DNA of 64,000 bases from contig NC_134470.1 in assembly GCF_964194025.1 (NCBI RefSeq), positions 65,286,001 through 65,350,000 of the forward strand, in the 5' to 3' direction. Below, piece after piece: positions 3,867-53,067 of this stretch. The DNA is from Convolutriloba macropyga (Eukaryota). How positions within the stretch are numbered: the first letter of the stretch is position 1; every line of letters starts with the position of its first letter. A model generated the notes under the pieces. That model was not told the DNA's origin and made no database searches. It was given only the letters and a program-made list of their open reading frames with translations. Position numbers and translations under genes: made by a program.

Positions 3867-4551
3867 GTTGCAAACACACATTACCAAGCCTAAAATTTAA
3901 ATAGCGATAATTATTTGAACCATATCCAAGCTTCCTTGAAATGCAGCTTATACTTACTATAAATTATGTTCTTTCTCATTAGCTTTTTTAAAACTTCGGT
4001 CAACAAAACCTATCATATTTAACGTTAAAAATTTTTGAATGGCTTAATTTTTTTTCTCGATTTTTAGTCTTTCTTTCAAAATATTTTTCGTTCACCAGTA
4101 TTATTGATTGCTCAGATTATGAAATTTTTAACTTCAATAGCGTTTCGAAAGACATGATAACGGAATCACATATACTTTTATGTTTGCGGGTTGATTGTTT
4201 TATGTTCAGAAAAGAGGTATTAAATGTATCTCAAAAACTTGAAAAGATGGCGACTCAAAACACGTGCACTCGTGACGGCATTTTTAAGAGAACTGCCAGA
4301 TTCTGCTATAATAGAACCTTCATTCTCAGCATCCTGGCTGTTGAATTTTGCAGCGTTTAGTGAATTAACATGACTCTTTTTGGCTAACTGCAAACTTTGT
4401 TTTAGCCGTTTTAACAAAGCTCTCCTGGCATTCACGCTAATTGAGACCCCGAAACGGTATATTCTTATCTGAAGTAATGGCCGGGCAACGCATAGATCCC
4501 CGTAAGTATACCAAAATTGGAGATATAATCGGAAACTCATACCATGATTAG

Positions 4552-6637
4552 CTCTTTCTTTGGTCTTGAAGGTTTGTTGATCAGAGGGGCCAAACGTTAT
4601 CTGCTGACACACATTAACGAATATCTTTGTTTCTTTGAGAGGTTACAAAAATAGCAAAATTAATATTATTACAAGGACTAACATAGAAAACTTTTATCTT
4701 ATGAAAAAATGATGAAAACTTAAGTCATAAGAGCGTCGCCAGAAACAGTAGTCAGAACGAGGATAATTGATAATGAGATATACTACCAAAAATGAGTTTC
4801 TACAAACTAAAGATATCAGCTTCTCTTTGATTCAACAGATGTCATCGCCTTGGTTAGAAGACGTTGAGCCCAGAGTAACAAACCACCAAACGTTTCCTAA
4901 GTATGAATGATAGCAACAATAGCTTCCATTGACCTATAGCCTCAAAAAATAATACAAACAAGTATTAAAAAATAAAGAAAAACGAACCGACTGACGCCGG
5001 AAAAATTGGTCTTTAATGCCAGGCGGGGGGTAAATTTTTCCCCCCGCCTGGAAGGTAGGGTTCGAACTTTATTTCGGAGTGAGAGCAATTGAAATTACTC
5101 AAAAATGAAGTGCGTGAAAAATTCACTTGAAAAATCAAAGATTATTCTAGAAAAGCACAAAAACGGTCGAGAAAAAATGCATAACAAAGACACACACGTT
5201 TACAATAATTGCTTCTCATTTGAGAACAATTCAAAACTATTCTTCTACTAATTGTTGGGATCTTTAATTAATTTGTATGAACCGTACAGCTACCTTAGAA
5301 TAACTTTCAATTCGATTGATAAATAATTCATTGACCTTAACTCCTCCAATAAAAGTTAGCGAAAACGATTGAGAACGAAACAGTTGCTACAAACAAGATC
5401 GAGTCTTTGAAAACTCCCGCAAAATTGTCTATGATGAAAAATGGAAAAACACACGTAATAGTAACAACGTTTTGATTCGGTAGTTAAGCCATGATTTAAT
5501 AAAAGCTATAGTTACTCAATTTCTCCAACCAACAATTACTCAATTTCTCTTTCTTTGGTCTTGAAGGTTTGTTGATCAGAGGGGCCAAACGTTATCTGCT
5601 GACACACATTAACGAATATCTTTGTTTCTTTGAGAGGTTACAAAAATAGCAAAATTGATTTTATTACAAGGACTAACATAGAAAACTTTTATCTTATGAA
5701 AAAATGATGAAAACTTAAGTCATAAGAGCGTCGCCAGAAACAGTAGTCAGAACGAGGATAATTGATAATGAGATATACTACCAAAAATGAGTTTCTACAA
5801 ACTAAAGATATCAGCTTCTCTTTGATTCAACAGATGTCATCGCCTTGGTTAGAAGACGTTGAGCCCAGAGTAACAAACAACCAAACGTTTCCTAAGTATG
5901 AATGATAGCAACAATAGCTTCCATTGACCTATAGCCTCAAAAAATAATACAAACAAGTCTTAAAAAATAAAGAAAAACGAACCGACTGACGCCGGAAAAA
6001 TTGGTCTTTAATGCCAGGCGGGGGGTAAATTTTTCCCCCCGCCTGGAAGGTAGGGTTCGAACTTTATTTCGGAGTGAGAGCAATTGAAATCACTCAAAAA
6101 TGAAGTGCGTGAAAAATTCACTTGAAAATCAAAGATTATTCTAGAAAAGCACAAAAACGGTCGATAAAAAATGCATAACAAAGACACACACGTTTACAAT
6201 AATTGCTTCTCATTTGAGAACAATTCAAAACTATTCTTCTACTAATTGTTGGGATCTTTAATTAATTTGTATGAACCGTACAGCTACCTTAGAATAACTT
6301 TCAATTCGATTGATATATAATTCATTGACCTTAACTCCTCCAATAAAAGTTAGCGAAAACAATTGAGAACGTAACAGTTGCTACAAACAAGATCGAGTCT
6401 TTGAAAACTCCCGCAAAATTGTCTATGATGAAAAATGGAAAAACACACGTGATAGTAACAACGTTTTGATTCGGTAGTTAAGCCATGATTTAATAAAAGT
6501 TATAGTTACTCAATTTCTCCAACCAACAATTACTCAATTTCTCTTTCTTTGGTCTTGAAGGTTTGTTGATCAGAGGGGCCAAACGTTATCTGCTGACACA
6601 CATTAACGAATATCTTTGTTTCTTTGAGAGGTTACAA
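4552..6637. repeat. Near-identical tandem duplication, ~995-bp unit, 2.1 copies
   Basis: ctctttctttggtcttgaagg recurs at 4552, 5547 and 6541; the units differ by only a few SNPs/indels and each contains a family A element. Confidence 0.9.
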
Positions 6638-25421: not shown

Positions 25422-25612
25422 CTAGAATAAAAAAAAACATGCTGATCAAGCATCAAGTACTGCCAAGTTGTAGCATTAAATTGTCGTTGTTGAATAACAT
25501 CTCTTATGGAGCTAAATAAGAGCATGGGAATAATCGGAAGCTGAGAACTGTCACAAAACAATCAAATTACACGAACTTCAATTTTCCTTGACAATAATGA
25601 GTAGCAGGACGT

Positions 25613-26784
25613 AGTAGTAAGGTGTCTTACTGGGCACGCAACGGGGGGGGACATTTGGGTGTTACTGTGTTCGCAACGGGGGGGGACACGAAAAATTTTT
25701 TCGAAAAGTTGATAGTTTTTGGCGTTTTGGCAAGAGCGGTGGAAAACGCCAAAAACTATCGCCTTTTCGAAAAATTTTTTCGTGTCCCCCCCCCCGTTGC
25801 GAACACAGTAACACCCAAATGTCCCCCCCCCCCCCGTTGCGTGCCCAGTAAGACACATTTTTGGCAAATTTCTGAATTTTTTGACGTTTTTTGGTAGGTT
25901 TGGTTTGTTTTATATGTTAGTCGGGAAAAAGCACTGCTGTTCCAGTGGTTGTCATTTTGTAATCAGCCCAGGTGAGCCTCATCAGTAAAAAAAACTTTTT
26001 GAAAAAAAATTGAAAAAAAAATGAAAAATTCAAAGTGTTAAAATTGCATGAATTGTATTTTGCCCTGGGTTTCAGGTCTCAAAGACGATTTTTTGTTGAC
26101 CTCATCTCAGCTGGTGGGCCTAATCATTGAAAAAAACTTTGAAAAATTTTGGGAAAATTCAAAAATTTTCAAGTATTAAAATTGTGTGAAACACAATTTG
26201 CGCTGGGTTGCAGGTGTTAATGTTAATTTTTTGTGGACATCATTTTACCTGGTACTAAGATTATATCAAATGTTTTATAACCAAAAACTGTCATCAATAG
26301 ATTGTTGACTGTTTGTAGTATTCTTTATGTCTGTTACTATCAGTCAGTACTCTCAAATACTCTTATAACCCTTTATTTGATGATGCATGAGAATAAAATA
26401 TAGTAATAGGCAAGGAGGTGAGTGGTTGTTGCTATGCATGTGTTGTTGTTAGAACTCTCTGTGTCATCAATCTATTTTTAGAATATAATGTATACTATGA
26501 CTAACTACTATAGTCACTGCCGAAGGTCATTATACACGAGTAGTTGTCGTATTCCATTGTGATTGGGAGACCGATCGACCGAGAGTGTCTATGATTTATT
26601 TTTGAATAAGTTTACATTTTTGAATAAGTTCAACTGTCTGCATTGGGTGGTTTTGTTATTACAGTTTAACACAGTACTTGTATAGCAATAGAGCAAACTT
26701 ATAAGAATTTGTTTGAGTTTCAGTTTGAGTTTGAGTTTGATTTGTAAACAAACTATGCCAGCGGTTGACGATTGTTCCTTCTTT
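25613..26784 (+). repeat. Left TIR of the Polinton
   Basis: Reverse complement of 37068-38229 with a few SNPs and small indels; includes the terminal hairpin 25622-25856 and two ~140-bp direct repeats (25971-26250). Confidence 0.95.
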
Positions 26785-27196: not shown

Positions 27197-27760
27197 TTAG
27201 AGTTTACGTTTTTTTGGAGCAAGACAAGAACTGACAGGCGGCGTTTCAAGACTGTTGGTTGCAACGAGCCTACTACATTCGGGTGTTTTGATTAAACTTG
27301 TTGAAATTGTTGTAGATGTTATCGAGTTTTCTAAGTTCTTGGTTGTTGAATCTGGAGTTTCAGTAATAGCTGGAATTTTCCAAAAGTTTTCAATGAGCTC
27401 CAAATCCTGCCAATATTCTTCCTGATTTTCGTAGATAGGTACTTCTTGAACATCGTAATCATAGAGAATTCTTCTAATATCATCTCCCAGAACGTTTGAC
27501 TCAAATATAAACTCACGAGTACAGCCCGCAACGAATTCCAGAGTATATTGAGCTCCCTTAAATGACGCTTTTTCACATCTAAAAGACTGAATGAAATCGA
27601 AAGTAACAACAGGTAATGCCATGTGTTTCACAGTTTTCCAGTCTTTGCCTTGATACTCTTGCTGAACAATAACAATATTTTCTTTTTTTAAAGTCTCGTA
27701 TGCAATTGTTCGACTGCTGGAAGAATATTTTTCTTTTAGTATAATTGCAATGGGAAACAT
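27197..27760 (-). CDS. Polinton hypothetical nuclear protein (187 aa; possible PC4-like N-terminal domain, C-terminal NLS)
   Basis: Intact ATG ORF ending PKKRKL; AATAAA on the minus strand at 27114-27119. Confidence 0.7.
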   Translation of the reverse strand: MFPIAIILKEKYSSSSRTIAYETLKKENIVIVQQEYQGKDWKTVKHMALPVVTFDFIQSFRCEKASFKGAQYTLEFVAGCTREFIFESNVLGDDIRRILYDYDVQEVPIYENQEEYWQDLELIENFWKIPAITETPDSTTKNLENSITSTTISTSLIKTPECSRLVATNSLETPPVSSCLAPKKRKL

Positions 27761-28579: not shown

Positions 28580-29011
28580 ATGCGTCTTGATAAACCAATA
28601 GTTTGTAGATATTGTTTGAAAAACATTCATGAGAAGTATTTGTTATTAGCCACAACATACCCAAACAATTCAGTAAGACTGAACTATTTCTTAGCAGCAA
28701 GTGAATACTTTAGTCAAAAGGAAAACTTTGATTATGATAATGCTTTGAAACTTCGACCTTACGGAGGACTTATTGGAATAGATAACTCTTCTTTAGATTC
28801 ATACCTAAACAACTCCAAAATTCTACGATTACACGCAATTTTGCATGACGCTGGTGGTTTCATCCAGGAGCTCTACACTGAAGGACCCGGCTACTCGTAC
28901 ATGCTTCCCTGGAAGCTTAATAGTTGTTTCACTGGACATCTGACAGGAATTCTTTTTTGTTTGTATATTAAAGTTTTCCACTCAAAAATTTATCACTTGT
29001 TGGAATGTTAA
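28580..29011 (+). CDS. Putative phospholipase A2-like protein (143 aa)
   Basis: YGGLIG loop followed by LRLHAILHDA (His-Asp dyad), reminiscent of parvoviral/adintoviral PLA2; first ORF of the + strand block after acceptor tttttttcag. Confidence 0.5.
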   Translation: MRLDKPIVCRYCLKNIHEKYLLLATTYPNNSVRLNYFLAASEYFSQKENFDYDNALKLRPYGGLIGIDNSSLDSYLNNSKILRLHAILHDAGGFIQELYTEGPGYSYMLPWKLNSCFTGHLTGILFCLYIKVFHSKIYHLLEC

Positions 29012-30008: not shown

Positions 30009-30275
30009 ATGGAACAAGTAACAGTTGATCAAGTTGTGCAAGAAACTCTTTTCGAAAAGCAAAGTAGTGGAAAATCTACTTGGAAATTTTGTAACCAGAT
30101 AACATTACCAAGGTCGGAAGTTGTGTTTTTTGTTCAAATGTTTGTAATTTTGATGCTAATAGTTCTTTGCATTGTGAAATTGACTTTGCTTAAACCAACT
30201 TGTGAGGAAACATCAGTTTGGATTTCGATTTTGTCAAGTTTAGTTGGATATATCTTACCAAATCCTCGATTATGA
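30009..30275 (+). CDS. Small two-transmembrane protein (88 aa)
   Basis: Two hydrophobic segments ending WISILSSLVGYILPNP; its stop overlaps the ATPase start (ATGA). Confidence 0.75.
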   Translation: MEQVTVDQVVQETLFEKQSSGKSTWKFCNQITLPRSEVVFFVQMFVILMLIVLCIVKLTLLKPTCEETSVWISILSSLVGYILPNPRL

Positions 30276-30964
30276 ACAAAATTATCCCTACCAGTGACAG
30301 AATCTTTATGGCCGTGGTAGGTCCGTCGAGTTGTGGTAAAACGAATTTAATTTTCAGAATATTAACAGGAAACACCTTTTATCCAAAGTTTAAAAATGTT
30401 ATTTTTCTTTACCACGAAATGCAACCAATATACTCACAAGTTGACCAGCATTCAAACATTGTTTTCAAAAAATTCACAAACTTGGAGTTTTTGCAAAATA
30501 CTGAAAATTGTTTGCTTATATTTGATGATTCTTGTGAGGAAATTTTTAATGACAAAGAGTTTGTCAAGCTGGCTACCGCAGGTCGACACAAGAACATTAA
30601 TGTCATTTATGTGAAACACAATCTTTACCAGCAAAGTAAATGGTCACGAACAATAGATTTGAATACAACTCATATCATTTTGTTCAAATCACCACGTGAC
30701 GTTCAGCAAGTCGAGTTTCTCGGTAAGCAACTGAATCTTACTCATTTTTTAAAAAATTGTTATGAAATAGCAACAAGAGAAACATTTGGACACTTATTGC
30801 TTGACCTGGATCCAAAAACTTCGGACTGTCTACGATTTTGTTCAAACATTACAGAGCCTGGACCGTCGGTCTTCTACATACCTTCAGACAAAGCCGATAT
30901 TACTCACATATCAAATGAACGAGAAAAAATTCTTTATACTGAAGCGAATGGTACTTTTATCTGA
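30272..30964 (+). CDS. A32/FtsK-like genome-packaging ATPase
   Basis: Walker A GPSSCGKT, Walker B LLIFDD, A32-type motif TAGRHKNI; ATG at 30272. Confidence 0.93.
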   Translation: MNKIIPTSDRIFMAVVGPSSCGKTNLIFRILTGNTFYPKFKNVIFLYHEMQPIYSQVDQHSNIVFKKFTNLEFLQNTENCLLIFDDSCEEIFNDKEFVKLATAGRHKNINVIYVKHNLYQQSKWSRTIDLNTTHIILFKSPRDVQQVEFLGKQLNLTHFLKNCYEIATRETFGHLLLDLDPKTSDCLRFCSNITEPGPSVFYIPSDKADITHISNEREKILYTEANGTFI

Positions 30965-31987: not shown

Positions 31988-32918
31988 AGAAAAATTGCTG
32001 CAGTCAATGTACACAAAAGGGCCAGCTGCGTTTGGAAGCGTTGAAAATTTACAAAAAAACACAAAATTACAACCTCGCAAAGTGAAACAGTTTCTAGAGA
32101 CCAAGAATGCTCACACAAAATATAAGGGCTTTCGAAAAAGTTTTGCACGTTTGAAAGTTATTGCATATGACCTTGATGAAATTTGGTCTCTTGACTTGGC
32201 ACACGTGGACAAACTGTCAAAACAAAACGCAGGTATTAGGTACTTATTGATTGCTGTTGACTGTCTTTCACGCTATCTACGTGTCGAACCACTCAAATCA
32301 AAATATGCAACAACAACAGCTGAAGCCTTCAAACGTATGATTAAGCATAAACAGCCGAAAAAAGTTTGGGTGGATGCTGGAACAGAGTTTAAGGGAAACT
32401 TCAAAACACTTTGCCAGAGGAGAAACATTACAATTTATCAAACTTTCAGCGAAAAGAAGTCTGCGTTTGCAGAAAGGAACATCCGCTCTTTAAAGAATAA
32501 TATTTACAAGTATCTGGAAGAAAAATGGACATATTCATACATCTCTCAGTTGAAAAATTTTGTGCAAACAATAAACTCACGCATCAACCGTGTAACAAAA
32601 ATAGCTCCGAACAAAGTAACCAAAAAAGACGTTCCTTATCTGTTATCATTAAATGCAAGTGCATCCGAGAAATTAGTTAGTCGACCCAAATTTCGAATTG
32701 GTGATTTTGTTAGAATATCAAAAATTGATTTACCCTTCCGAAAAGGTTACAAACAAACATTTACCGACGAAGTGTTTGAAGTTTACGATATTCCAACGAT
32801 AAACCCTCCAACATACAGCCTAATTGATTCGAATCAGAATCCAATCAGTGGTAAGTTCTATCAATTGGAACTAGTGAAAGTTGCTGACAACAGCGAAGCG
32901 TTCACAAAGCATGCATGA
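31977..32918 (+). CDS. Retroviral-like (rve) DDE integrase
   Basis: WSLDL (D), WVDAGTEF (D), AERNIRSLK (E); C-terminal FRKGYKQTFTDEVF and GKFYQLEL motifs; start uncertain (ACG at 31977 or ATG at 32007). Confidence 0.95.
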   Translation, partial: TTSEEKLLQSMYTKGPAAFGSVENLQKNTKLQPRKVKQFLETKNAHTKYKGFRKSFARLKVIAYDLDEIWSLDLAHVDKLSKQNAGIRYLLIAVDCLSRYLRVEPLKSKYATTTAEAFKRMIKHKQPKKVWVDAGTEFKGNFKTLCQRRNITIYQTFSEKKSAFAERNIRSLKNNIYKYLEEKWTYSYISQLKNFVQTINSRINRVTKIAPNKVTKKDVPYLLSLNASASEKLVSRPKFRIGDFVRISKIDLPFRKGYKQTFTDEVFEVYDIPTINPPTYSLIDSNQNPISGKFYQLELVKVADNSEAFTKHA

Positions 32919-33774
32919 GTTTACCATACATTTAGTTTCATCAGCTTCCATGGACATTTTTCCAGAAAACACTTTGGCTAACTTCAAAAACTTTTTCAAT
33001 GAAGAAATCAGTCTGCAAGGTGATTGGAGAGTAGCTTTGAGTGAAATTATCTTCCCATCCAGAATCAACCAGGTTAATAACACTCGAATCATAAAGTATT
33101 CCTCTGAAGGTAACAAAAACCATCAGAGAAGTATTCCATCTGGTGCTGTTTCAAAACCATACAAAGGGGAGACAGTCTTGATCAATACTGGAAGCTATGA
33201 GAACTTGGAACACCTGATAAAAGCCATCAAGACAGCTACTGGTCTAACTAAATTCAGTCATCAGTACAATAAAATCACAGGCGTTTTGGTTTTGTTTTTT
33301 GGTAAAAATGAAGGAATTACATTTCCTGACGAAGAAATACCAAGCATTCTGGGCTTTGAAGGAATCAAAGATGGGTCAGGTACTCATATTGGTTATAAAA
33401 TGATAGATTCCTTTGACAATTTGGCACTGGGTGACGGAGAAGCAAAAGCTTTTGTTGCTGATTACCCTTTTGATCTGCTTGCAGGAAAACAATTGATATT
33501 TGTATACAGCAACATAATTGAGTATCAACACATTGGAGACACAAAAGCTCCGCTGATTCGTATCATTGATTCAAAACAACGCCTGAAAAACGGTAGCCTT
33601 TGTGAAATTGAACCTACGCATAGAATAGTTTTTAGCAATTTGGAATATAAGAAATTGTTGTCAAACAATTTTCAGTGTATTGAAGTTCAGTTGAGAACCG
33701 AAACTGGCAAATTTGTTCCATTTACGGGAACAGGAAAAGTTATTCTTACTTTAAACTTTAAAAAATTTAATTAA
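32911..33774 (+). CDS. Minor capsid protein (penton, single jelly-roll)
   Basis: N-terminal FTIHLVSSASMDIFPENTLANF...LQGDWRVALSEI and C-terminal FVYSNII..Q..GD...PL.R...LTLNF, typical of Polinton pentons. Confidence 0.88.
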   Translation: MHEFTIHLVSSASMDIFPENTLANFKNFFNEEISLQGDWRVALSEIIFPSRINQVNNTRIIKYSSEGNKNHQRSIPSGAVSKPYKGETVLINTGSYENLEHLIKAIKTATGLTKFSHQYNKITGVLVLFFGKNEGITFPDEEIPSILGFEGIKDGSGTHIGYKMIDSFDNLALGDGEAKAFVADYPFDLLAGKQLIFVYSNIIEYQHIGDTKAPLIRIIDSKQRLKNGSLCEIEPTHRIVFSNLEYKKLLSNNFQCIEVQLRTETGKFVPFTGTGKVILTLNFKKFN

Positions 33775-34200
33775 ATGGAAGCTTATTATCAACAACAATC
33801 AGTTTCACCATACTTTGCAGGACACTATCGTCAACGAGGCAGTGGGTTCGGGGCTTTAGCGGCTGGAATTGGTAGGGCGGCCATACCGATAGCTAAAAAG
33901 TTTTTGTGGCCTGTTGCTAAAAAGATTGGAAGAGAACTGTTTGTACAGGCGGCACCAGAGATTGTTGACGTTGTAGCCAAAAAGAAGAGTCCTAAAGAAG
34001 CACTCAAGTCAACTGTTCAGAAAACGGTAAAGAAACAAGTCGGTGGCTCAAGAGCCCGAATTGGAGGTGTTCGTGGTGGAAATGTTTATAAAAAACAGAA
34101 ACAGAGCGGTCCTGTCAAATCCCGAAAAATCATTCAGAGAAAACAACCGTTACTGAGAAGTCGGTCAGATTTCTTTTCCAAAGTGAAAAATGAATACTAA
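33775..34200 (+). CDS. Basic amphipathic virion protein (core or membrane-lytic precursor)
   Basis: YY..Q...RQRGSGFG followed by an amphipathic Lys-rich helix; protease-site-like QVGG, RIGG and VRGG; Arg/Lys-rich tail. Confidence 0.75.
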   Translation: MEAYYQQQSVSPYFAGHYRQRGSGFGALAAGIGRAAIPIAKKFLWPVAKKIGRELFVQAAPEIVDVVAKKKSPKEALKSTVQKTVKKQVGGSRARIGGVRGGNVYKKQKQSGPVKSRKIIQRKQPLLRSRSDFFSKVKNEY

Positions 34201-35511
34201 TTTATTGCCAGCAGAGGCAACACACACAACTCTAGACTTGTTTGAAAAGCAGCCTCTCCTGATCACCTTTGACAATGCTTTTACCCAAAAGGTTGGTCCA
34301 TCATACTCACCGGATGGTCCAATGCTGGAATTCGAAGTTGTTGGCGACAGGAACAACTTTATTGATTTGCAAAAGTTTCTACTTGAAATAAAATGCAAAA
34401 TCACGAGAACCAATGACGCCGATTTGAGAACTGGTACTGATGCCACAAACACAGATTCGCCGTATTTTAGCAATAACGCATTACACTCTCTGTTTTCAGA
34501 GTGTACAGTTTCGGCAAATGGCGTTAAATTGTCAAATACAAACGGCAACTACGCACACAAGGCTTTCATAGAAACAGAATTCTCATCCGGAAGAACAGCA
34601 AAGAGCACATGGTTAGTTTGTCAAGGCTATTATTATGAAGACGAACCGGCTAAAATTGATGGAGCTGACAACAGAGCTACTGATGTTGCTGCGCGAAAAG
34701 CTTTAGTTGCTGACTCTCTGGAATGTTCTCTACTTGGAAAACCGGCCAGTGATATATTGACCTGTGACAAACATCTTCTCAGTGGTGTTACACTACGCAT
34801 CTCCTTCAGAAGGTCTCCAAACGATTTTACCGTCATATCCGAATCTAATAAACATTACAGAGTAAAAATTGTTGAAGCAAATCTGTACGTGCGCAAAATG
34901 ACCGTGGCTGATCATGTGTTGTCTGCGATAGAAAAAACTTTGCTAAAAACACCAGCTGTCTATCGGTACACGGAGGTGTTGCCCAGAACTTTTCTTGCCA
35001 CTGCTGGCATCCGCAGTTGGAGTCAAGAAGACATCTTCTCCAAAGAGTTCGAAGAATGATTATAGCAATGTCAACCAATCAATCATATTTAGGAACTAAC
35101 AGAACGAATCCTTTCCATTACCAGAAATTCAATTTGAATGAAATAGTAATTTATCGAAATGGACTACCGGTTGTTGGAACACCAATTTCAACAACCTCAG
35201 ATCAACGAGTCTACTTCAACACGCTTGAAGCTTTAGATTTTCTTGATAAAGGTGGTCATGGCATTCCCCTAGCTGATTATCCAAATCACTTTATTTTGGC
35301 CTTTGACCTTACTTCAACACAGGAGGCTTCACACGATTTTATTCATCCTGAATTAACAAATTGTTCAATTTCAGTGGAGCTCACTTTTGGAACACCTTTG
35401 GGTGACAACGTTGAAATTTTATTCCTAGGCGAACGAAGTTCAACTTTTTACGTCAACTCTGAACGAAAAGTAACCAAAAACTCGGTTATTACATATCCTG
35501 TTGATGGATAA
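34190..35511 (+). pseudogene. Major capsid protein (double jelly-roll, hexon-like), split by a frameshift near 35046
   Basis: ORF 34190-35059 (NNALHSLFS, ANLYVRK) continues in another frame as VRRMIIAMSTNQSYLGTNRTNPFHYQKF...AFDLT; ~440 aa when joined. Confidence 0.88.
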
Positions 35512-35935
35512 TTTTGAGATAACTTATCTAGTAAATAAATGTTTTCATCTGAAGCACAAGTTCTGTGGAGTTTTTGCAGCTGACAATTTTCCAAGACTGC
35601 CAGAAAATTGCTTTGCTGTGGTCAATGCCTCAATATCAACATCATCGGGTAGTCATTGGCTACCGATTTGTAATTATAAAAAAACAATGTACTTTGCTGA
35701 TCCACTTGGGCAAGCACTGGATTGCTACCATTTTGTATACACTCGACTGCTGCAGTTCTACTTCGAAGAAGAAGTCGTTCAGTGTCTCAGATTGCAGCCA
35801 ATTCAGAGCCCAAACTCCAAACTGTGTGGACTCTTTTGTATTTATATTGCTCATATTATTTTCACATATAGCTATCCGTTTGTACACTACATGAATGATG
35901 ATGATTTACTACGATTTGCTAAGCATATGATGTAG
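35504..35935 (+). CDS. Adenain-like cysteine protease (capsid maturation)
   Basis: Catalytic H (GSHW), D (FADPLG), Q and C (IQSPNSKLCGLFC). Confidence 0.92.
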   Translation: MDNFEITYLVNKCFHLKHKFCGVFAADNFPRLPENCFAVVNASISTSSGSHWLPICNYKKTMYFADPLGQALDCYHFVYTRLLQFYFEEEVVQCLRLQPIQSPNSKLCGLFCIYIAHIIFTYSYPFVHYMNDDDLLRFAKHMM

Positions 35936-36039: not shown

Positions 36040-36648
36040 TTAATTTTTTAATTCAAATCGAAAGTTACATTTTACATTCTCTTTATCAACATTCAGGGAG
36101 CCATATCCACTAATAATAATATCAATAATTTTTGAAAATTCTGCATAAGAACTGTTCTGATAAATACTTAAAAATCGGTTAAAAGTACAAGTTGGTAAGA
36201 AATCAGTTTGAACTTGAACATTCTCTTTGACAGTCTCCAGTTCAAAGATATTTGGAAGCTTTCTTTTGGAGCAATATAAATCTAGCTGATGTTGGTGATT
36301 GTAAATGACTGCTTGCTGCAACTTCTCAAAAATTTCACCGTGAAAAGTGATGTTGACAGATTGTGTTTTGTGGAGTAGAAGTCTGAAACATGTGTATAGG
36401 CAAGGTATAGAATAGGGTTTTGAAGAATTTTTTTTGAAAGCCTCTGTTACTTGATCCAAAGCTGCAATAACATGATAGTGTTGTTCTTTTATTCTACAAA
36501 AGCTGTTATTCTCATGCAAACTGTAAGCAAAACTGTTGTTGATTTCTTTAGTATCAAATATTGGCTCACTTCTGCAGATAAAATAGTGAAATTTTTTTCG
36601 AAACTGTCGAAAGAATTCAGGTGTTCGTTCAAACATTGCCTCAACCAT
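36040..36648 (-). CDS. Putative HUH-superfamily (Rep_2-like) endonuclease-fold protein (202 aa)
   Basis: FHYFICRSE / FAYSLHENN / KEQHYHVIA / CLYTCFRLLLHK are collinear with Rep_2 motifs; HYH at 36472-36480; the canonical catalytic Tyr position appears to be Leu. Confidence 0.5.
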   Translation of the reverse strand: MVEAMFERTPEFFRQFRKKFHYFICRSEPIFDTKEINNSFAYSLHENNSFCRIKEQHYHVIAALDQVTEAFKKNSSKPYSIPCLYTCFRLLLHKTQSVNITFHGEIFEKLQQAVIYNHQHQLDLYCSKRKLPNIFELETVKENVQVQTDFLPTCTFNRFLSIYQNSSYAEFSKIIDIIISGYGSLNVDKENVKCNFRFELKN

Positions 36649-36650
36649 TT

Positions 36651-37097
36651 TCAATACTGTGTGTCGCTCTCAGAACTTTTCTTCGCTTTCTTCTTTGATC
36701 GACCAGCAACCTGAGTTGAATTAAAGCTATTCGTCTCCGGTGAGAACGCAAACTGATAACGTCGTTTCCTTCCCGTTATCTTATTGTGTTCTTTTTTGAT
36801 AGGTTGTTCTGATTGTCCGGTCCTTAGTTTTTCACAGAGTGAATTGTAGCTTTGAGATAATTGTTCAAACTCGGCTAAAGATAGTGTTATTCTCTGGTTG
36901 AACTTGAAACCATCACTGTTACAATTGTTTCTGTTGTCTTGGGTTTGATCACGGAAGTTATCTTTTTTTAAAAGTTTTACCGTTATATATGTTCCAGTAG
37001 AGTCATAAGTTTTCACACAAGCAACTACATAACGTTTTTCTGTACATGTAATATCGTGAGAAAAGTCAAAGAAGGAACAATCGTCAACCGCTGGCAT
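36651..37097 (-). CDS. PC4-like ssDNA-binding protein (148 aa)
   Basis: KRYVVACVKTY...TYITVKLLKK...FNQRITLSLAEFEQL follows the PC4 strand-strand-strand-helix pattern; basic tail; ATG lies inside the right TIR. Confidence 0.6.
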   Translation of the reverse strand: MPAVDDCSFFDFSHDITCTEKRYVVACVKTYDSTGTYITVKLLKKDNFRDQTQDNRNNCNSDGFKFNQRITLSLAEFEQLSQSYNSLCEKLRTGQSEQPIKKEHNKITGRKRRYQFAFSPETNSFNSTQVAGRSKKKAKKSSESDTQY

Positions 37098-38229
37098 AGT
37101 TTGTTTACAAATCAAACTCAAACTGAAACTCAAACAAATTCTTTTAATTTTGCTCTATTGCTATACAAGTACTGTGTTAAACTGTAATAACAAACCACCC
37201 AATGCAGACAGTTGAACATGTAAACTTATTCAAAAATAAATCATAGACACTCTCGGTCGATCGGTCTCCCAATCACAATGGAATACGACAACTACTCGTG
37301 TATAATGACCTTCGGCAGTGACTATAGTAGTTAGTCATAGTATACATTATATTCTAAAAATAGATTGATGACACAGAGAGTTCTAACAACAACACATGCA
37401 TAGCAACAACCACTCACCTCCTTGCCTATTACTATATTTTATTCTCATGCATCATCAAATAAAGGGTTATAAGAGTATTTGAGAGTACTGACTGATAGTA
37501 ACAGACATAAAGAATACTACAAACAGTCAACAACCTATTGATGACAGTTTTTGGTTATAAAACATTTGATATAATCTTAGTACCAGGTAAAATGATGTCC
37601 ACAAAAAATTAACATTAACACCTGCAACCCAGCGCAAATTGTGTTTCACACAATTTTAATACTTGAAAATTTTTGAATTTTCCCAAAATTTTTCAAAGTT
37701 TTTTTCAATGATTAGGCCCACCAGCTGAGATGAGGTCAACAAAAAATCGTCTTTGAGACCTGAAACCCAGCGCAAAATACAATTCATGCAATTTTAACAC
37801 TTTGAATTTTTCATTTTTTTTTTCAATTTTTTTTCAAAAAATTTTTTTTACTGATGAGGCTCACCTGGGCTGATTACAAAATGACAACCACTGGAACAGC
37901 AGTGCTTTTTCCCGACTAACATATAAAACAAACCAAACCTACCAAAAAACGTCAAAAAATTCAGAAATTTGCCAAAAATGTGTCTTACTGGGCACGCAAC
38001 GGGGGGGGGGGACATTTGGGTGTTACTGTGTTCGCAACGGGGGGGGGGGACACAAAAAAATTTTTCGAAAAGGCGATAGTTTTTGGCGTTTTCCACCGCT
38101 CTTGCCAAAACGCCAAAAACTATCAACTTTTCGAAAAATTTTTTCGTGTCCCCCCCCCCCCCCCGTTGCGAACACAGTAACACCCAAATGTCTCCCCCCG
38201 TTGCGTGCCCAGTAAGACACCTTACTACT
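37068..38229 (-). repeat. Right TIR of the Polinton
   Basis: Reverse complement of 25613-26784; terminal hairpin at 37980-38220. Confidence 0.95.
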
Positions 38230-38574
38230 GGACGTGCCAATTCTAGTTCCCCGTTCACGTATTTTTCACTTACTTAGTTGATTAAGTTTTACATGGATTG
38301 GAAGAAGACTTTGGATGGCTATAATTTGAGGGTGTCAGAACGCTGAAAATTAACGTAGTGGATTGCTTTGCTGCGCAACTGCTGTCTAAAAGCACTTTGA
38401 GCAGAATGAGCAAATTTTATACCATATCTTCATTTCTGCACTAAAAAGCTTGCCTTCTCAAAACAATTGCGGAGAATTAATAGCTTTCATCCACATAAAA
38501 GTATTATCTTGGCATATAGGATCCAAAGCCTTGAAATTTGGAAAATCAAACCTGGTTTTTTAAAATCGGCTTAC

Positions 38575-45781: not shown

Positions 45782-46144
45782 CTGTAACAATCTTCCGGTC
45801 TCATAAGTTTCACAGACATATAAAAAGATGAAAAGACCAGGCAAAATAGGAAAAGTGTCAGAAAGACAACTCCAGAAGGAACTCAAAGCATAGTCGAGAC
45901 GGGACAAGACGCCCGTCCATATAAATATAAATCCCAAGGTAATAGTCGTAAAAACTATTGGGCGGGAACAATAATCAAAAGCCCAAATTCTTAAAACAGC
46001 AAAAAGCATCATACAGAAGCAACTATCAGGCACTGGGAGCTCCGAAAAATCTCACCGATGCAGTAACTAAGATGCTTTAGCAACCAACTCCAATGAAAAA
46101 TGCCAGTAAAGCCATAAAACAAGCAATTCCGTAATGGAATATGA

Positions 46145-47500
46145 ACGAAATGTAAATGCGTCATAAGATAATCAAAGCAACCTTGAGATGTACTAAAACG
46201 CGGCAGACCCTATTCCCGTTGTGACTAAACAGCTGTGAAAAAGCTGTTCTACAAACAACGGTGCAAAAACGTAAACAAGAAATAAAAACGAAAAAAAAAC
46301 AGACTGCAATGGTTGTATAAACATCACCTGCTGTTCAGAAGCAGTTCTAGCTAACAATTTTTTCCTTAGAAACTACATAATGCTGGGTACTAATCATATT
46401 TCAATTTCTAAAAAATAAATATATAATTAAGATGATGTTTCAATAGTCTTTCTTAAATTTTTGTTAATAAAATATGTAACTTTCATTCCATCAATAGCTT
46501 TGTTCAATTATTTGTGGATTATAATGGCCGAATTCTCCAATCGTCACTAGTTTGCAATTAAAGGTATAAATTTCTGCAAACTAAAGCTTTGGATAATTTT
46601 TTGTACTTGTATATTGGGTTGTTACATTTGTTTTAGTTTGAGGATTTTGTGTACGCACCGAATGTTTTCATGGAGAAAATTATTTATTGTTCGAGTCTCT
46701 TCTCGTGTTTTTTGATTCGACGAGACAAGCAATAGGCTAAGGAACACACAAACATGGACGAAATGTAAATGCGTCTTTGGAGTCTCATAGCAACATTGAG
46801 ATGTACTAAAACGCAGCACACGCTATAACCGTTGTGACTAAACAGCTTTGAAAACGCTGTTCTACAAACAACGGTGCAAAAACGTAAACAAGAAATAAAA
46901 ACGAAAAAAACAGACTGCAATGGTTGTATAAACATCACGTGCTGTTCAGAGGCAGTTCTAGCTAACAATTTTTTCCTTAGAAACTACACAATGCTGGGTA
47001 CTAATCATATTTCATTTTCTAAAAAAATAAATATATAATTAAGATGATGTTTCAATAGTCTTTCTTTAATTTTTGTTAATAAAATATGTAACTTTCATTC
47101 CATCAATAGCTTTGTTCAATTATTTGTGGAATATGATGACCGAATTCTCGAATTGTCACTAGTTTGCAATTAAAGGTAAAAATTTCTGTGAACTAAAGCT
47201 TTGGATTTCATTATACTTGTATATTGGGTTGTTACATTTGTCTTTGTTTGCAGATTTTGTGCACGCCCTGAATGTTGTCATGGAGAAAATTAAATTATTT
47301 AATGTTCGAGTCTCTTCTCGTGTCCTTTGATTCGACGAGACAAACAATAAGCTAAGGAACACACAAACATGGACGAAATGTAAATGCGTCTTTAGAGTCT
47401 CATAGCAACATTGAGATGTACTAAAATGCAGTACACGCTATTCCCGTTGTGACTAAACAGCTGTGAAAACATTGTTCTACAAACAACGGTGCGAAAACGT
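46145..47500. repeat. Tandem ~615-bp repeat (further copies at ~49690-50600) in GALM intron 4
   Basis: ccgttgtgactaaacagct recurs near 46216, 46829, 47444, 49719 and 50458. Confidence 0.85.
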
Positions 47501-50500
47501 TAGCCAAAGATTAATTGGAATGAATAAACACATCGGAATGATGTATAAACATTACCTAACAACGTCGAGAATATTGCTTTCAAAGTCTGCTCTGAAATCA
47601 ATATCTGCTCTTGACAGCTTGTGTTCCACCAGCAGAAACAAGCGACAAATTTTCTCAAATAAATATCGGAGAAATGCAATCAGTAAATGGCTGTAAATCC
47701 TCAAAAAATAAGAGCAGCAAACAAAACAACTCAAATTCGACGAGTTGCTCTCAAGCGACCGCCGAGGGGTTGGGTGGGAGAACTGGACAATGGACGACAG
47801 AGGCGGGTACAAATCGCCATGTGAAGTAGGGTGGAAGAGGGATGAGTGTTTGTGGAGAAAGGTGACTAAGAAAGATTAGGATTAAGATTAGGAACCGCCC
47901 TTCGCACCATGAATTTATATCTCCTCAAAACTGTTTCGGTAAATCGCATATTTAGAATCTAGAAAAACTCTCAGAGAGCTGGTCAGCCACTTAATGCCGT
48001 CCGGGCTTTACCTGTTTATCATGTCTTTGCGGACGAAAAGTCAAAAGCGTCAGACAATATCGGGCGAGCAAAAAAACGCCCTATGACTAATACAGTTGCT
48101 ATAAACTTCATTTGAGAGTAATTAAACAAAAGAAATTGAAATCAGGAATGTGTACAAATTCTTATAGTAGCACCTCAAATAAGTAGCCTTTTTGAGGTAC
48201 CACGATAAACTATGGACAAAACTTTAAAAAGAAGATCTCACAGATGAAAATGTATCAGAAGCACAAGAAATTGTACAAGAAACCTATTTATTGCATCTAA
48301 ATTAATTCTCCTTTATGAGGTCTTCTTGGGTTCCCACTCGAGGAGATGTACTTCAATTTGGAAATTCACGCATAAGATCCACGAAGTACTTATCATCTCT
48401 TAATTCACTGTCACTAGTTAATTCAATTCATTCAATCAAGAAATTGACAGCTGACGGCAAAAAATTGGAAACACTGAAAACGTCAATGCGTTTTAAAAAT
48501 CGCAAGGCAGCTTTTGGGCGTACTACCACGTGATACATACAAAAGCTGGAAAACAGACCCAGAAGGAATCGAATAAAAAGATTGTAAAGCAGTTTATACA
48601 AGTCTATGGAATCACTGAAGAAAGCAGACAATAATTATTCAGTGAATCAATCATCACACATCCAGAGAAAATCCATACAAAGGGAATATTGTCCTTTGAG
48701 GCAGCAGATCTTCCACAAAACGAATCAAATAAATAACCAAACTTACAGCGGAATGGGCTACATTATGATCGTGCACATTCAAATTACAATGGATAACAAA
48801 CATGCCCCGCACATATGGACAACAAATCTGTAATAATCTTTGTCCAAAAACTTGTTACAAAAAAAACTAGCGTTTATCAGAAAAACTTTATATAAATAAT
48901 GACACTACGCGTCCTTAAAGTACACAGTACAACAAACTTAAGGAGCTGAATAACAGACAATGCAAAACGGGCAAAAACGGAGATATTTAACAAATATCAG
49001 AAGTTTTTTTTAAAACCAGTGGCCTCAAAGTAAGAAAAAGCACCAAACGGCATGCTAAAATCCTTAACCAAAGCACAACATACAACTTTAGAAGCAATAA
49101 ATCAACCTCAAATATTAGTCTTGAAGAAAAGCGCAAAACGGTCAAGCGAAAAATTGCATAAAAAAGACACACACGTTTACAATAATTGCTTCTCAATTCG
49201 AGAGCAATTAAAAAGAATAGAGCATTAAAACATTAAATCATCGATGAAAAAATGGGAAAAAAGGTCAAAAATGTCCATTTGCAACACAAGCACAAAAAAT
49301 CACAATCAACAAAGTTTTTCTTCAAACACCGTTCTTCAATCTACTTCAAATTTGGTGCAAAAAAGTGCCGCAAAACCACTCGCTTGTTCGCTGTTTCGGC
49401 GTGACCAAAATCACCACTCCAATTTGACTTCAAAAAGCATGAAAATGAGTGAACAGATCATTAAAAAAAGACAGCTCACCAATACAATTCAAAGTTTTTG
49501 AATCGTAAAATAACGAGAAACAGCCAGTAAAAGAACCAAACAATAACAAGAAACAGCCAATAAAAGCCGCAGCTTTTGCTTTGCTGCTATTTAAAGAACA
49601 CATTTCCAAAAAACAGGCAAATAATTTTGAAGAATACCGAAAGGAAGCTGAAGTGTAAATACGTCACAAAAATCTCAAAGCAACTTTGAGACGCAATGTA
49701 ACGTACTGCACGCTATAACCGTTGTGACTAAACAGCTGTGAAAACGCTATTCTACAAACAACGGTATTTTTTTGATGATGATTATTTGTATAGAGTAATT
49801 AGAGGAAGGAATAATCATTAGAATTGATTTATATATTAAAAGAGCAAAAGTATCATTTAAGCAATGCTGTGAAAACGCTGTTCTGCAAAGAACGGTGCAA
49901 AAACGTATACAAGAGATTAAAACAAAAAACAGACTGGAATGAGTGTATAAACATCACCTACTGTTCAGAAGCAGTTCTAGCTAACAATTTTCTCCTTAGA
50001 AACAACAATGCTGAGTACTGATCACATTTTAATTTCTAAAAAATTATATAGAATTAAGATGATGTTCCAATAGTCTTTCTTAAACTTTTGTTAATAAAAT
50101 ATGTAACTTTCATTCCATCAATAGCTTTTTCAATTATTTATGGATTATGATGACCGAATTCTCCAATTGTCACTAGTTTGCAATTAAAGGTATAAATTTC
50201 TGTAAACTAAAGCTTTGGATTTATTTATACTTGTATATTGGGTTGTTACATTTGTCTTTGTTTGCTGATTTTGTGCACGCACTGAATGTTTTCATGGAGA
50301 AAATTAAATTGTCTAATGTTCGAGCCTCTTCTCGTGTCTTTTGATTCGACGAGACAAACATTAGGCTAAGGAACACATAAACATGGACGAAATGTAAATG
50401 CGTCTTTAGAGTCTCATAGCAACATTGAGATGTACTAAAATGCAGCACACGCTATAACCGTTGTGACTAAACAGCTGTGAAAACGCTATTCTACAAACAA

Positions 50501-53067
50501 CGGTACATTTTGTTAATGATAATTATTTGTATAGAGTAATTAGAGGAGGGAATAATCATTAGAATTCATTTATATATTAAAGGAGCAAAAGTATCAATTA
50601 TGCAATGCTGTAATTTGGCCGGGAGGATAAAACAGGGGGATATAGGTGAAGAACAAAAGATGAGCTAGTGTCAAGGTAAACATGAAGATATTGCTCGCCT
50701 TTCGATTTATCAGGCAGTTTGATTAATTCATGTTTGTCGGTAGTTTGAGAATATGTAACTGCGCCATGAAAATCTCGACTCAAAGCCAAGATGGATTAAC
50801 ACGCAGTCAACACTTTTACCCACGTGATTAAACAAGAGTCATGACTCTGCTTTGCCCACGAAGGGTTATAACTCTGTCATCAGGCTAACATCATATCTCA
50901 ATTATTTAAAGACAAACCTGCCTATAAACAGCTATCGTGAGCTCAACCAACTACTCGCAAAATTGAGTGTGTAACTAAATGTAGCTTCCTAAATAAAGCG
51001 TCATTTTTCAAGACCTAATTTAGACAGCTCAGGAACGATAGCTCTCGGTCGCTATTTCCAACATAGCCAACAGTTTGCCGATTCAGGTTGAGACAGAAAA
51101 ATAAGATAAATTGATAGAAACTTTCAAAATTAAATAAATTAAAGGCCACTAATATATATATTCAGGCACAGAGATTTCAAAATAAAACGTGTAAAACTAA
51201 AAAACACTTATAAGTTCAAAAATGTGATAGATAATGTACTATATATATTGCTTTAACATTGTTGAGAGTTTTTCAAGCGCTAATTGTTCTTTTCGAGAAT
51301 AAACTACCGGCAAATCGAGTGCCAGAAAAAGCCCTCATTGACGCACTTGATGCACATCGGGAATGAAAGAGAAAAAAGATAAAAATTGATAAAAATTATT
51401 TTCCAAGTGTCAAATAGTGTTTTAATTTGGTGCGCAGTTTCAGTCAGATTCTAAAACTATACTTGATTCAGCCTCTATAATGAAAGCAATTAATCTTAAC
51501 ACTAATGTCAGGACGCAATCGCAAAAATGAACTTTGATAACCTAATGCGTTATAACTTAAAGGCCGGGCTTTATCGGTTTATCCCGTTTCTTTTGATTTT
51601 GCTGCTTTGACATTGACAGAATTCACTGCACTGCGTAACTTAATGAGTGAAAAATGAAATCTATGCAGTTAAACAAGTAAGTAAGGTAAGTTAGGGGTCA
51701 AACGTCAAAATGGTAAAACAAAAAACGTGCTCAAAAGTTTTATCGAATATAAAAAGAGCTCGCATAAAAAATTGTTGTTGAGACGCTCACGGCGGCTATT
51801 ATTCATGGAAACTAATAATTATGAACACACTAATTGAATGAAAATTTGCAAACAATTTGAAAAATAAAGTTAGCTAAAAGTTAGCTAAATAAAGCGTTTA
51901 GGGCACAAAAGCTTAGTTGTTCGTAGTGCAGTCACTTGATCAAGCAGGTAGACAGAAAAGGCACATTAAAAAACGTCAATTTGATGGTAACATTTAATCA
52001 GAAATAGTGTTCTGACCTTTTGGAATCAACAATCCCTAAAACGCTTAAGAACTCAAGCTATTTACGATTATTTTCACGGACAAGAAATTTGAAAATCTGT
52101 TGATTTTGAAGAATATTGATCCTGATATCGCATTTTTTGGTCCGTTGTCCAAAAAAGGATTGGAACCAGATTCTCAACAGATTTTCTTAAAAAATCCAAT
52201 AAGTATTAAAGCTAGAAACTGTTTTAAAATCTGAAGTGCTTTCAAGCATTTTTTTGCTGAAAACGGAAACATGAACATTGGTTCAATCAGGATCTGTAGA
52301 ATACAATTTTCTCCTCAATTATGCTTGACTTTACAATAACGTTAAAAACACATTAACAGAAACGTAGCTAAAAAAACTTAAGAGAAAGATCACATCTCCA
52401 GCCCACGTTGCAAAGAGTTGCTATTAGCAACTGGGCACTGATCAACAAAAACATAAAAAAGGGTATTACCTATTTTTGAAATTTTAAAAATTATCTTTTA
52501 TTAATTTTGATAATTCGTTTATAAATGATGAAAAGAAGGAGTAAAAACCATTAAAATAGTTAAAACTCAGGAGCGATTTAGTTACCAAACTATTATTAGC
52601 TAATAACAAAACGCTCAAAAAGTCCAAAAACACCTAAAAAAATTCGATTATGTAGCCTGATCGAACCAATTAAGTATGGAAAAAACCCGCTAAAACAGAA
52701 ACTTGTTTTGAAAAGGCCGCCCCTAACAAACAATTGGTTTCGCTTAGAGTAATTTTTAACACCACGCCTACTTGTCGCTCGCTCTCTCAAAAGTGCGGCA
52801 CGAACAAATAAGCAATCTTTCCTCGCTGCTCTTTAATTTACTCGCCAATTTGACCTGAACATTTTGTTTTCACGAGCGGCATATCTTTCAAATAGACTCA
52901 AACAAATACCGGCCACTAATACTCCTCTTCGAGTCGTGGCGCCCCAATAAAATGTAAACCCTTTGGTAAAAATAAAAGCGCCAAAATAACAGCCGTTTGA
53001 GTAGCCGACGACGGATATTTATATAGAAGATGAAAAACGCAAAATTTGGTCCATGCAAAAAACTAAC

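Follow-up and report, generated by a model that had tools for sequence, protein, structure and literature searches.

Mavericks (Polintons) carry AGTAGT ends, 6-bp target-site duplications (TSD), terminal inverted repeats (TIR), genes for an rve integrase, an A32 ATPase, a C5 protease and capsid-type proteins, and a polymerase with the layout terminal protein (TP), vOTU, nuclease and DNA polymerase B of the protein-primed type (pPolB) (PMC11161782, PMC10748475, PMC8502044, PMC8097293). They are the closest described relatives of the element analyzed here, a 12,617-bp (12.6 kb) Maverick-type insertion in a 64,000-nt stretch of the Convolutriloba macropyga genome (GCF_964194025.1, contig NC_134470.1, positions 65,286,001 to 65,350,000, forward strand). 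This whole stretch is called the window, and unprefixed positions refer to it. Endogenous virophages and polinton-like viruses (PLV) of Halocafeteria seosinensis have palindromes within their TIR beside the TSD, and terminal palindromes with a hairpin-priming proposal are thus already known for protist elements (10.64898/2026.07.28.741278). The inverted terminal repeats (ITR) of parvoviruses such as adeno-associated virus (AAV) combine a long terminal palindrome, iterated motifs, inverted isomers and an HUH-fold protein (PMC11575299). In circovirus origins, "melting-pot" copy-choice is proposed to correct one hairpin arm from the other by template switching (PMC3187698), and entomopoxvirus-associated PLV are proposed to exchange their termini independently of the capsid module (PMC11296320). 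Listings of the open-access literature, searched without subscription papers, Repbase and supplements, yielded terminal palindromes in that one protist preprint only. For Mavericks they showed neither flip/flop isomers nor origin capture nor an HUH-fold gene, and nothing was listed on single-orientation parvovirus ends.

The locus differs from each of these systems. The window element, which we named family S, lacks the polymerase that defines Mavericks, yet it is numerous and under purifying selection, has 235-nt subterminal palindromes and carries a stand-alone open reading frame (ORF) with a predicted HUH fold. Its hairpin is common to a polymerase-carrying family, P, which keeps priming domains and whose own two hairpins are unlike, with TIR of about 100 nt. 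The protist palindromes are 52 nt long (subtype 5) and belong mostly to elements with non-pPolB replication genes, whereas those studied here measure 235 nt, are common with a pPolB family and had their isomers scored. Unlike parvovirus ends, the palindrome stops 9 nt short of the terminus, inverted isomers are rare, there is neither an invariant catalytic tyrosine nor a superfamily 3 helicase, and the element is double-stranded and integrating. In contrast to circoviruses, it is linear and has an integrase, and its palindrome is much longer than the circovirus stem-loop, although arm-to-arm copying is seen in both. In contrast to the PLV, ends appear to have moved without a replication gene onto a polymerase-less body, the S body being nearer to elements with other termini. 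From these sequences, we consider that the hairpin is real and probably part of an origin, which would accompany protein priming rather than replace it, with S as a probable satellite replicated in trans.

Palindromic ends of the window element

The element has AGTAGTAAG termini at 25613 and 38229, is flanked on both sides by the 6-bp TSD GGACGT and ends in TIR of about 1.17 kb, inside which the palindromes sit.

25607 to 25612, plus strand: left TSD GGACGT, from TSD comparison
25613 to 25621, plus strand: outermost 9 nt, which include the Maverick end motif AGTAGT, outside the hairpin and unable to pair with the inner flank
25613 to 26784, plus strand: left TIR, ~1.17 kb, the first ~480 nt common with the capsid-side end of the 19-kb family P
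25622 to 25856, no strand: left subterminal palindrome with a 14-nt loop (25729-25742) and a 2-nt mismatch, from folding
37068 to 38229, minus strand: right TIR
37980 to 38220, no strand: right subterminal palindrome, its loop (38093-38106) oriented to the terminus as the left loop is
38230 to 38235, plus strand: right TSD GGACGT

An earlier note on this DNA had described a near-perfect hairpin of ~235 nt lying 9 nt from each terminus, and folding bears this out. The left palindrome (235 nt) has arms of 107 and 114 nt, which differ in length only by their G/C runs, and a 2-nt mismatch (25709-25710 against 25761-25762); it folds at -132 kcal/mol (z = -23.2), and 0 of 200 shuffles folded equally well. 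The right palindrome (241 nt) folds at about -132 kcal/mol (z = -20.6), also with a 14-nt loop and a 2-nt arm mismatch. Two GCAAC-G(n)-AC units per arm were found as claimed (left arm 25638 and 25673, complements 25784 and 25821), and the two loops indeed have identical orientation when each is read from its own terminus. Each palindrome begins 9 nt inward, and on fold-back the last 9 nt of the 3' end find no partner in the inner flank, so the element end is not a ready primer. When the hairpin was searched against Rfam, nine miRNA-like hits were returned, all sub-threshold, none reaching the gathering score for a microRNA (miRNA) precursor or structured RNA; such hits are expected of any long hairpin. 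A search of phage DNA gave no match.

It is extremely improbable that the palindrome is an assembly or sequencing artefact, an objection raised in the earlier note. G/C-run lengths do differ freely among copies, and no contig from the sequencing runs spans the whole stretch or can reveal loop orientation. Against this, a search of the genome with the terminus gave at least 161 matches (control, 0); 42 end pairs have perfect 6-bp TSD, i.e. about 40 insertions; contigs of the sequencing runs X1 and X2, which stem from different samples in a single study (X1 perhaps being what the assembly was made from), cover the entire hairpin, arms and loop; and heritable variants follow the tree. A match in a further organism, B, consisted of one contig of depth 3 and was left out of account, and no RNA data set was among those listed as carrying the sequence.

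A polymerase-less family and a polymerase-encoding relative with the same hairpin

Between its TIR, S encodes the following proteins, the last of them reaching into the right TIR.

27197 to 27760, minus strand: 187-aa ORF, family-less
28580 to 29011, plus strand: 143-aa ORF, family-less, 61% identical to its P counterpart
30272 to 30964, plus strand: A32-like packaging ATPase (PF04665, E = 4.8e-5)
32007 to 32918, plus strand: rve integrase (PF00665, E = 1.8e-6, under the curated cut-off)
32911 to 33774, plus strand: probable minor capsid protein, without a Pfam hit
34190 to 35511, plus strand: probable major capsid protein, without a Pfam hit, in two frames in the window copy (break near 35056-35059)
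35504 to 35935, plus strand: adenovirus-type (C5) cysteine protease (PF00770, E = 3.4e-8)
36040 to 36648, minus strand: ORF202, predicted HUH (Rep nuclease or origin-binding) fold, from a model and a motif
36651 to 37097, minus strand: PC4-like single-strand DNA-binding protein, a lead only (atlas score 0.87; PF02229 in 35% of the cluster)

S thus shows the AGT-repeat TIR ends with TSD, rve integrase, packaging ATPase and cysteine protease of a Maverick. The P homolog of the integrase, 69% identical to the S protein, scores above the Pfam curated cut-off. The two capsid proteins are presumed to be such from their position and Maverick motifs, and the capsid-type ORFs of S and P had no Pfam hit for double- or single-jelly-roll proteins. 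What S lacks is the protein-primed DNA polymerase B of its own that marks an autonomous Maverick and that P has. Because the Pfam family PF03175 overlooks the P polymerase, its absence from S was checked with the P polymerase protein itself. Pfam found no polymerase in the window element, the P-related query gave a best E of 0.95, and none was found in the 11 S stretches examined; Pfam detected no helicase in the window element either. Non-autonomous Polintons are already known, including from Repbase, and S is best called a polymerase-less satellite Maverick, a polymerase-less derivative of a Maverick. When the window copy was compared with three older polymerase-less S copies (~90% DNA identity), the ratio of nonsynonymous to synonymous differences per site (pN/pS) was 0.15-0.38 in 14 of 15 gene comparisons. 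On these sequence comparisons, S is a lineage under purifying selection and not debris. Its host site in the window is intron 1 of the ribosome-biogenesis gene NIP7 (minus strand; 38812-38575 and about 25421-25292), identified by PF17833 (E = 1.8e-24), whose exons join in frame across the element; this gene by itself marks the host as a eukaryote, presumably an animal.

Family P was found through termini spaced 19.0 kb apart and is colinear with S. The bodies of the two families are far apart: common genes are 66-70% identical in DNA, the integrase and ATPase 64-69% identical, and synonymous sites are saturated (pS 0.72-0.91). Terminus and hairpin of the window element are 93.7-98.2% identical to those of five P copies (G/C runs trimmed), and identity drops to 79-81% in the next 230 nt inward. 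The ends of P are themselves unlike, a long hairpin at the capsid end facing a shorter, asymmetric one at the polymerase end, with a TIR of only ~100 nt. All five 19.0-kb copies have a polymerase hit, and 25 of the 34 TSD-bounded chromosomal copies have none among the matches listed. One young P body has the S-type hairpin, and one P derivative has the S-type flank. Some P-derived copies have the short hairpin core at both ends (L135/L136, C2:32219695 and 32246544; L145/L146, C5:14775856 and 14788932), which suggests that one end was copied from the other. A 13-kb P derivative (L225/L226, C13:47731566-47744582) has kept the polymerase region and lost the capsid module, and is in this respect the complement of S.

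The addition specific to P is a 1,217-aa protein with zinc fingers and an Endonuclease VII (EndoVII) domain (E = 6.5e-4), 25-29% identical to PF03175 polymerases of the same genome, i.e. a beta-type/pPolB2 polymerase with an HNH-EndoVII insert. EndoVII is a junction resolvase. The N terminus, modeled from 25 sequences (predicted local distance difference test (pLDDT) 81.6), resembles a Y-family little-finger/TP domain (Z 8.4, root-mean-square deviation (rmsd) 3.1, 109 aligned) and an OTU protease (Z 7.9, rmsd 3.3, 97 aligned); a little-finger match also stands in the top Foldseek rows (E about 0.005-0.02). The GSGW motif lies in the loop between helix 2 and strand 4, and the Cys and His are invariant in 25/25 sequences. 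This TP-vOTU layout has been reported for priming-competent pPolBs (PMC11161782). As judged from these models, a family bearing this hairpin has kept protein priming. The earlier note had suggested that the hairpin could replace protein priming, had asked for a comparison with the TIR of pPolB-encoding Polintons of this genome and had counted identical hairpins in pPolB-containing relatives among what would refute it; the polymerase-encoding P is such a relative. That suggestion is not supported, given the hairpin identity between S and P, the TP and vOTU folds with conserved motifs in P, the unpairable 9 nt at the 3' end and the rarity of inversion outside P (1/81, see below).

Over its first 200 aa, the S capsid protein shares 86-91% identity with elements that have different termini, as against 77-80% with P (27 rows, chosen by place). 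Three ends of those other-terminus elements each finish in AGTAGT, leave a tail unpaired and form an AC-G(n)-AC hairpin, and two of them differ by compensatory stem changes. One of these terminus classes (153 matches) shows the long/short split a second time. Its 17 pairs measuring 12.3-14.1 kb have no polymerase among the matches listed, and of its 9 pairs measuring 17.3-17.5 kb, 6 have one, this check covering C1-C11 rows and the 131 of 6505 polymerase candidates that were scored. Read most simply, ends pass from one body to another and S acquired those of P; this direction is suggested because P has related hairpins at both ends and S is the one needing a polymerase. End-module turnover has been proposed for PLV (PMC11296320), and so has joint use of ends by pPolB and integrase (10.64898/2026.10.13.758929). 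The outermost AGTAGT, assigned to the integrase in the earlier note, is the commonest end motif of vertebrate Mavericks (PMC8097293). Jump-back protein-primed initiation also employs this motif, so it need not serve the integrase alone.

The same observations bear on the possibility that the hairpin is an integration, excision or packaging signal, bound by the integrase, the packaging ATPase or ORF202, and that S replicates otherwise. This would accord with the purifying selection on the S integrase, ATPase and capsid genes, with the occurrence of subterminal AC-G(n)-AC hairpins with compensatory stem changes in 3/3 ends of other lineages, and with the AAV ITR, which double as packaging signals (PMC11575299). 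We consider it unlikely: S has its own integrase and ATPase, only 64-69% like those of P, and would have little reason to match the ends of P on their account, the polymerase being what it lacks.

Loop orientation and copying between arms

Loop orientation was scored on 129 distinct termini and on further ends, 100 of the 161 terminus matches being listed. The first 30 loci were chosen by likeness to the window element, which biases them toward its orientation, and two other searches were orientation-blind. The flip/flop count leaves out both readings of one terminus-hairpin-terminus unit, one two-loop end, 14 truncated or deleted ends, all short-hairpin ends and one tip-deleted P end. As the earlier note had urged, scoring many copies proved informative: inverted isomers are real. 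Ends on P bodies comprised 9 flip and 4 flop (4/13 inverted) and all other ends 80 flip and 1 flop (1/81 inverted; Fisher p = 0.001, the copies being related to one another). Across a tree built from 15 P bodies, three changes are required to account for the four inverted copies; a single clade for all four was rejected by the approximately unbiased (AU) test (p = 6e-91), as was one for the three copies that have a loop type in common (p = 3e-10). Two of the inverted copies group as sisters and have unlike flanks and TSD, which indicates that the inversion preceded insertion and that the inverted end was propagated.

Sequence has also been copied between arms. This copying is graded: near the tip, inner-arm variants reappear on the outer arm (two markers, in 7 and in 8 ends), and at the stem base they do so in 0/13. 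Some tips have been rebuilt as perfect palindromes, and one end carries both the inverted and the original loop. This series fits a nascent strand that switches between arms, by analogy with the arm switching that has been suggested for the origins of circoviruses (PMC3187698). Obligatory terminal resolution, under which orientations are mixed (PMC11575299), does not fit it; the even flip/flop mix of AAV-type resolution is not seen outside P (80:1), and the 9:4 of P ends is compatible with such a mix.

We weighed whether the palindrome is instead a by-product of fold-back errors, homogenized by chromosomal gene conversion, with inversions arising after insertion. Several ends carry deletions, duplications or tandem repeats, one inverted loop lies in a tandem array of ends (C8:68331034), and variants are common to both ends in only 4 of 21 elements, all of which such a process could produce. 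This explanation, already weakened, is nonetheless very unlikely, as the hairpin is far more conserved than the adjacent TIR, stems covary in other lineages and the two inverted sisters with different TSD place inversion before insertion. Tandem arrays of element ends with the same flank were seen at L127 (C8:68329695-68331642), L128 (C13:6292939-6296643) and L047, one array having both loop orientations. At L152 (C10:51188031-51188232), a lone short hairpin has a terminus on each side, and the host flank is repeated there as an inverted duplicate, which is either a fold-back junction or an assembly chimera.

A predicted HUH-fold protein and the replication of family S

ORF202 (202 aa) has 195 relatives among cluster representatives and a P homolog 35-40% identical to it. 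H45, C51, H57, H59 and C83 are nearly invariant in an alignment of 81 sequences, H57 and H59 of the His-x-His motif occurring in 75/80 and 74/80, respectively. The top eight structural matches of its model (pLDDT 86.7) are all HUH Rep nucleases, the best being pMV158 RepB with a weak score (Z 4.9, rmsd 3.8, 90 aligned), and Foldseek placed RepB, AAV2 Rep and parvovirus NS1 on top, every E exceeding 0.001. The HUH assignment is made because these weak fold scores agree with the His motif. There is no invariant tyrosine (the candidates are Y85, in 42/81 and Phe in P, and Y116, in 60/80), which makes origin binding likelier than nicking. ORF202 is therefore a predicted HUH-fold, candidate hairpin-binding protein. 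Searches against Pfam, PHROGs, PDB sequences and plasmids gave nothing significant; a caspase assignment (atlas 0.90, 142/256 features, low recognition) was rejected, as fold searches point elsewhere. No relatives were found in viral contigs, and nine viral contigs with a related polymerase, most of them stretches that fall short of one end or both, had neither an ORF202 hit nor an evident terminal palindrome. HUH genes have been reported in Mriyavirus-like elements (10.64898/2026.06.19.733378), and none is described for adintoviruses in the accessible part of PMC11071296.

Such a protein raises the prospect of parvovirus-like hairpin transfer, in which the hairpin would prime itself, ORF202 or the polymerase EndoVII domain would resolve the end, and a polymerase of the host or of a helper would suffice for S, which could do without a terminal protein. 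Inversions that arose at least three times in P, one inverted lineage found at two insertions, a P loop type with 3 flip and 3 flop, the Rep nuclease matches and His-x-His motif of ORF202 and the EndoVII domain itself would all agree with this, as would the hairpin priming proposed for palindromic ends of protist virophages and PLV (10.64898/2026.07.28.741278). Moreover, a large polymerase-encoding Polinton group of this genome has ~124-nt palindromes that include the terminus (AGTAGT...ACTACT; L192:3801-3924, L198:9231-9354, L211:977-1100), with compensatory stem changes and a 3' end that could pair completely. We nevertheless regard hairpin transfer as improbable here. The 3' tail of 9 nt is unpaired, 80 of 81 non-P ends have one orientation, the arm mismatch keeps its polarity in 47 of 77 parsed ends, ORF202 lacks an invariant tyrosine, no helicase was found in S, and P keeps TP and vOTU. 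Even the fully terminal group, whose loop motif has 1,189 genome matches and in which ORF202 was not detected, shows 32 pairs of a single orientation among 100 matches listed, the lone opposite pair spanning two neighbouring elements. Being common and of one orientation, this group indicates that terminal hairpins are common in the Polintons of this genome and compatible with a fixed orientation.

Further repeats were observed alongside these. In another Polinton family, the terminal hairpin measures ~60 nt and its tip is branched and GC-rich (L202:2800-2860), and first looks indicate a very heavy Polinton load genome-wide (3,891 to 6,505 candidates for the polymerase and 4,439 for the capsid). 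The window also contains tandem repeats of ~995 bp and ~613 bp (4552-6637, 46064-50528), a dispersed repeat family (16345, 22646, 40616 and 44207) and, among its repeats, a short G/C palindrome (5019-5051, 6014-6046).

The account we favor, with some reserve, is an origin of protein-primed replication that can be transferred, that a satellite uses in trans and that is subject to occasional template-switch inversions. The palindrome would act in cis, as the terminal origin module of a Maverick replicon that is protein-primed and replicates by strand displacement. S, which keeps capsid, packaging, integrase, single-strand DNA-binding-like and HUH-fold genes, would be a long-lived satellite. It would have acquired its ends from P, not the reverse, and would depend for copying in trans on the TP-vOTU-EndoVII-pPolB of the 19-kb P, with which it has the terminal ~480 nt in common. 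Jump-back protein-primed initiation uses terminal repeats such as AGTAGT, and initiation would be protein-primed at this motif. As replication starts or terminates, the palindrome would melt or extrude, its AC-G(n)-AC units probably being bound by the HUH-fold protein, and the nascent strand would sometimes switch arms, giving conversions, loop inversions, tip deletions and duplications. The view of the earlier note that the hairpins are replication origins therefore keeps its core, in that they are probably part of one, as an element without a polymerase and real inverted-loop isomers suggest; their substitution for protein priming is not supported.

Several points weigh against this account. 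The HUH fold scores are weak (best Z below 5; Foldseek as above), and the even orientation ratio in one P loop type would be expected from terminal resolution. Comparisons with the two youngest S copies give mixed pN/pS (0.17-1.67, few sites), and the lack of polymerase in the second terminus class rests on size and on the scored fraction of candidates. The polymerase candidates number in the thousands, and a family other than P among them could serve S; the exchange of ends could reflect chromosomal gene conversion. A bolder extension, which we hold to be doubtful, is that Mavericks are organized in guilds of helpers and satellites, with exchangeable end modules, the hairpins, defining each guild; in these, capsid-encoding, polymerase-less satellites would switch helpers by hairpin capture and the HUH-fold protein, not annotated before, would bind and at times nick the hairpin, giving real terminal resolution beside protein priming.

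Maverick replication has so far been inferred rather than shown, and the dozens of dated copies in this genome record template switching at the ends, which makes the model testable from sequence. The HUH-fold ORF provides a candidate hairpin-binding protein. If the satellite reading is true, polymerase-less Mavericks would be long-lived parasites of their relatives and not just decayed copies, and terminal sequence, not capsid ancestry, would decide who helps whom.
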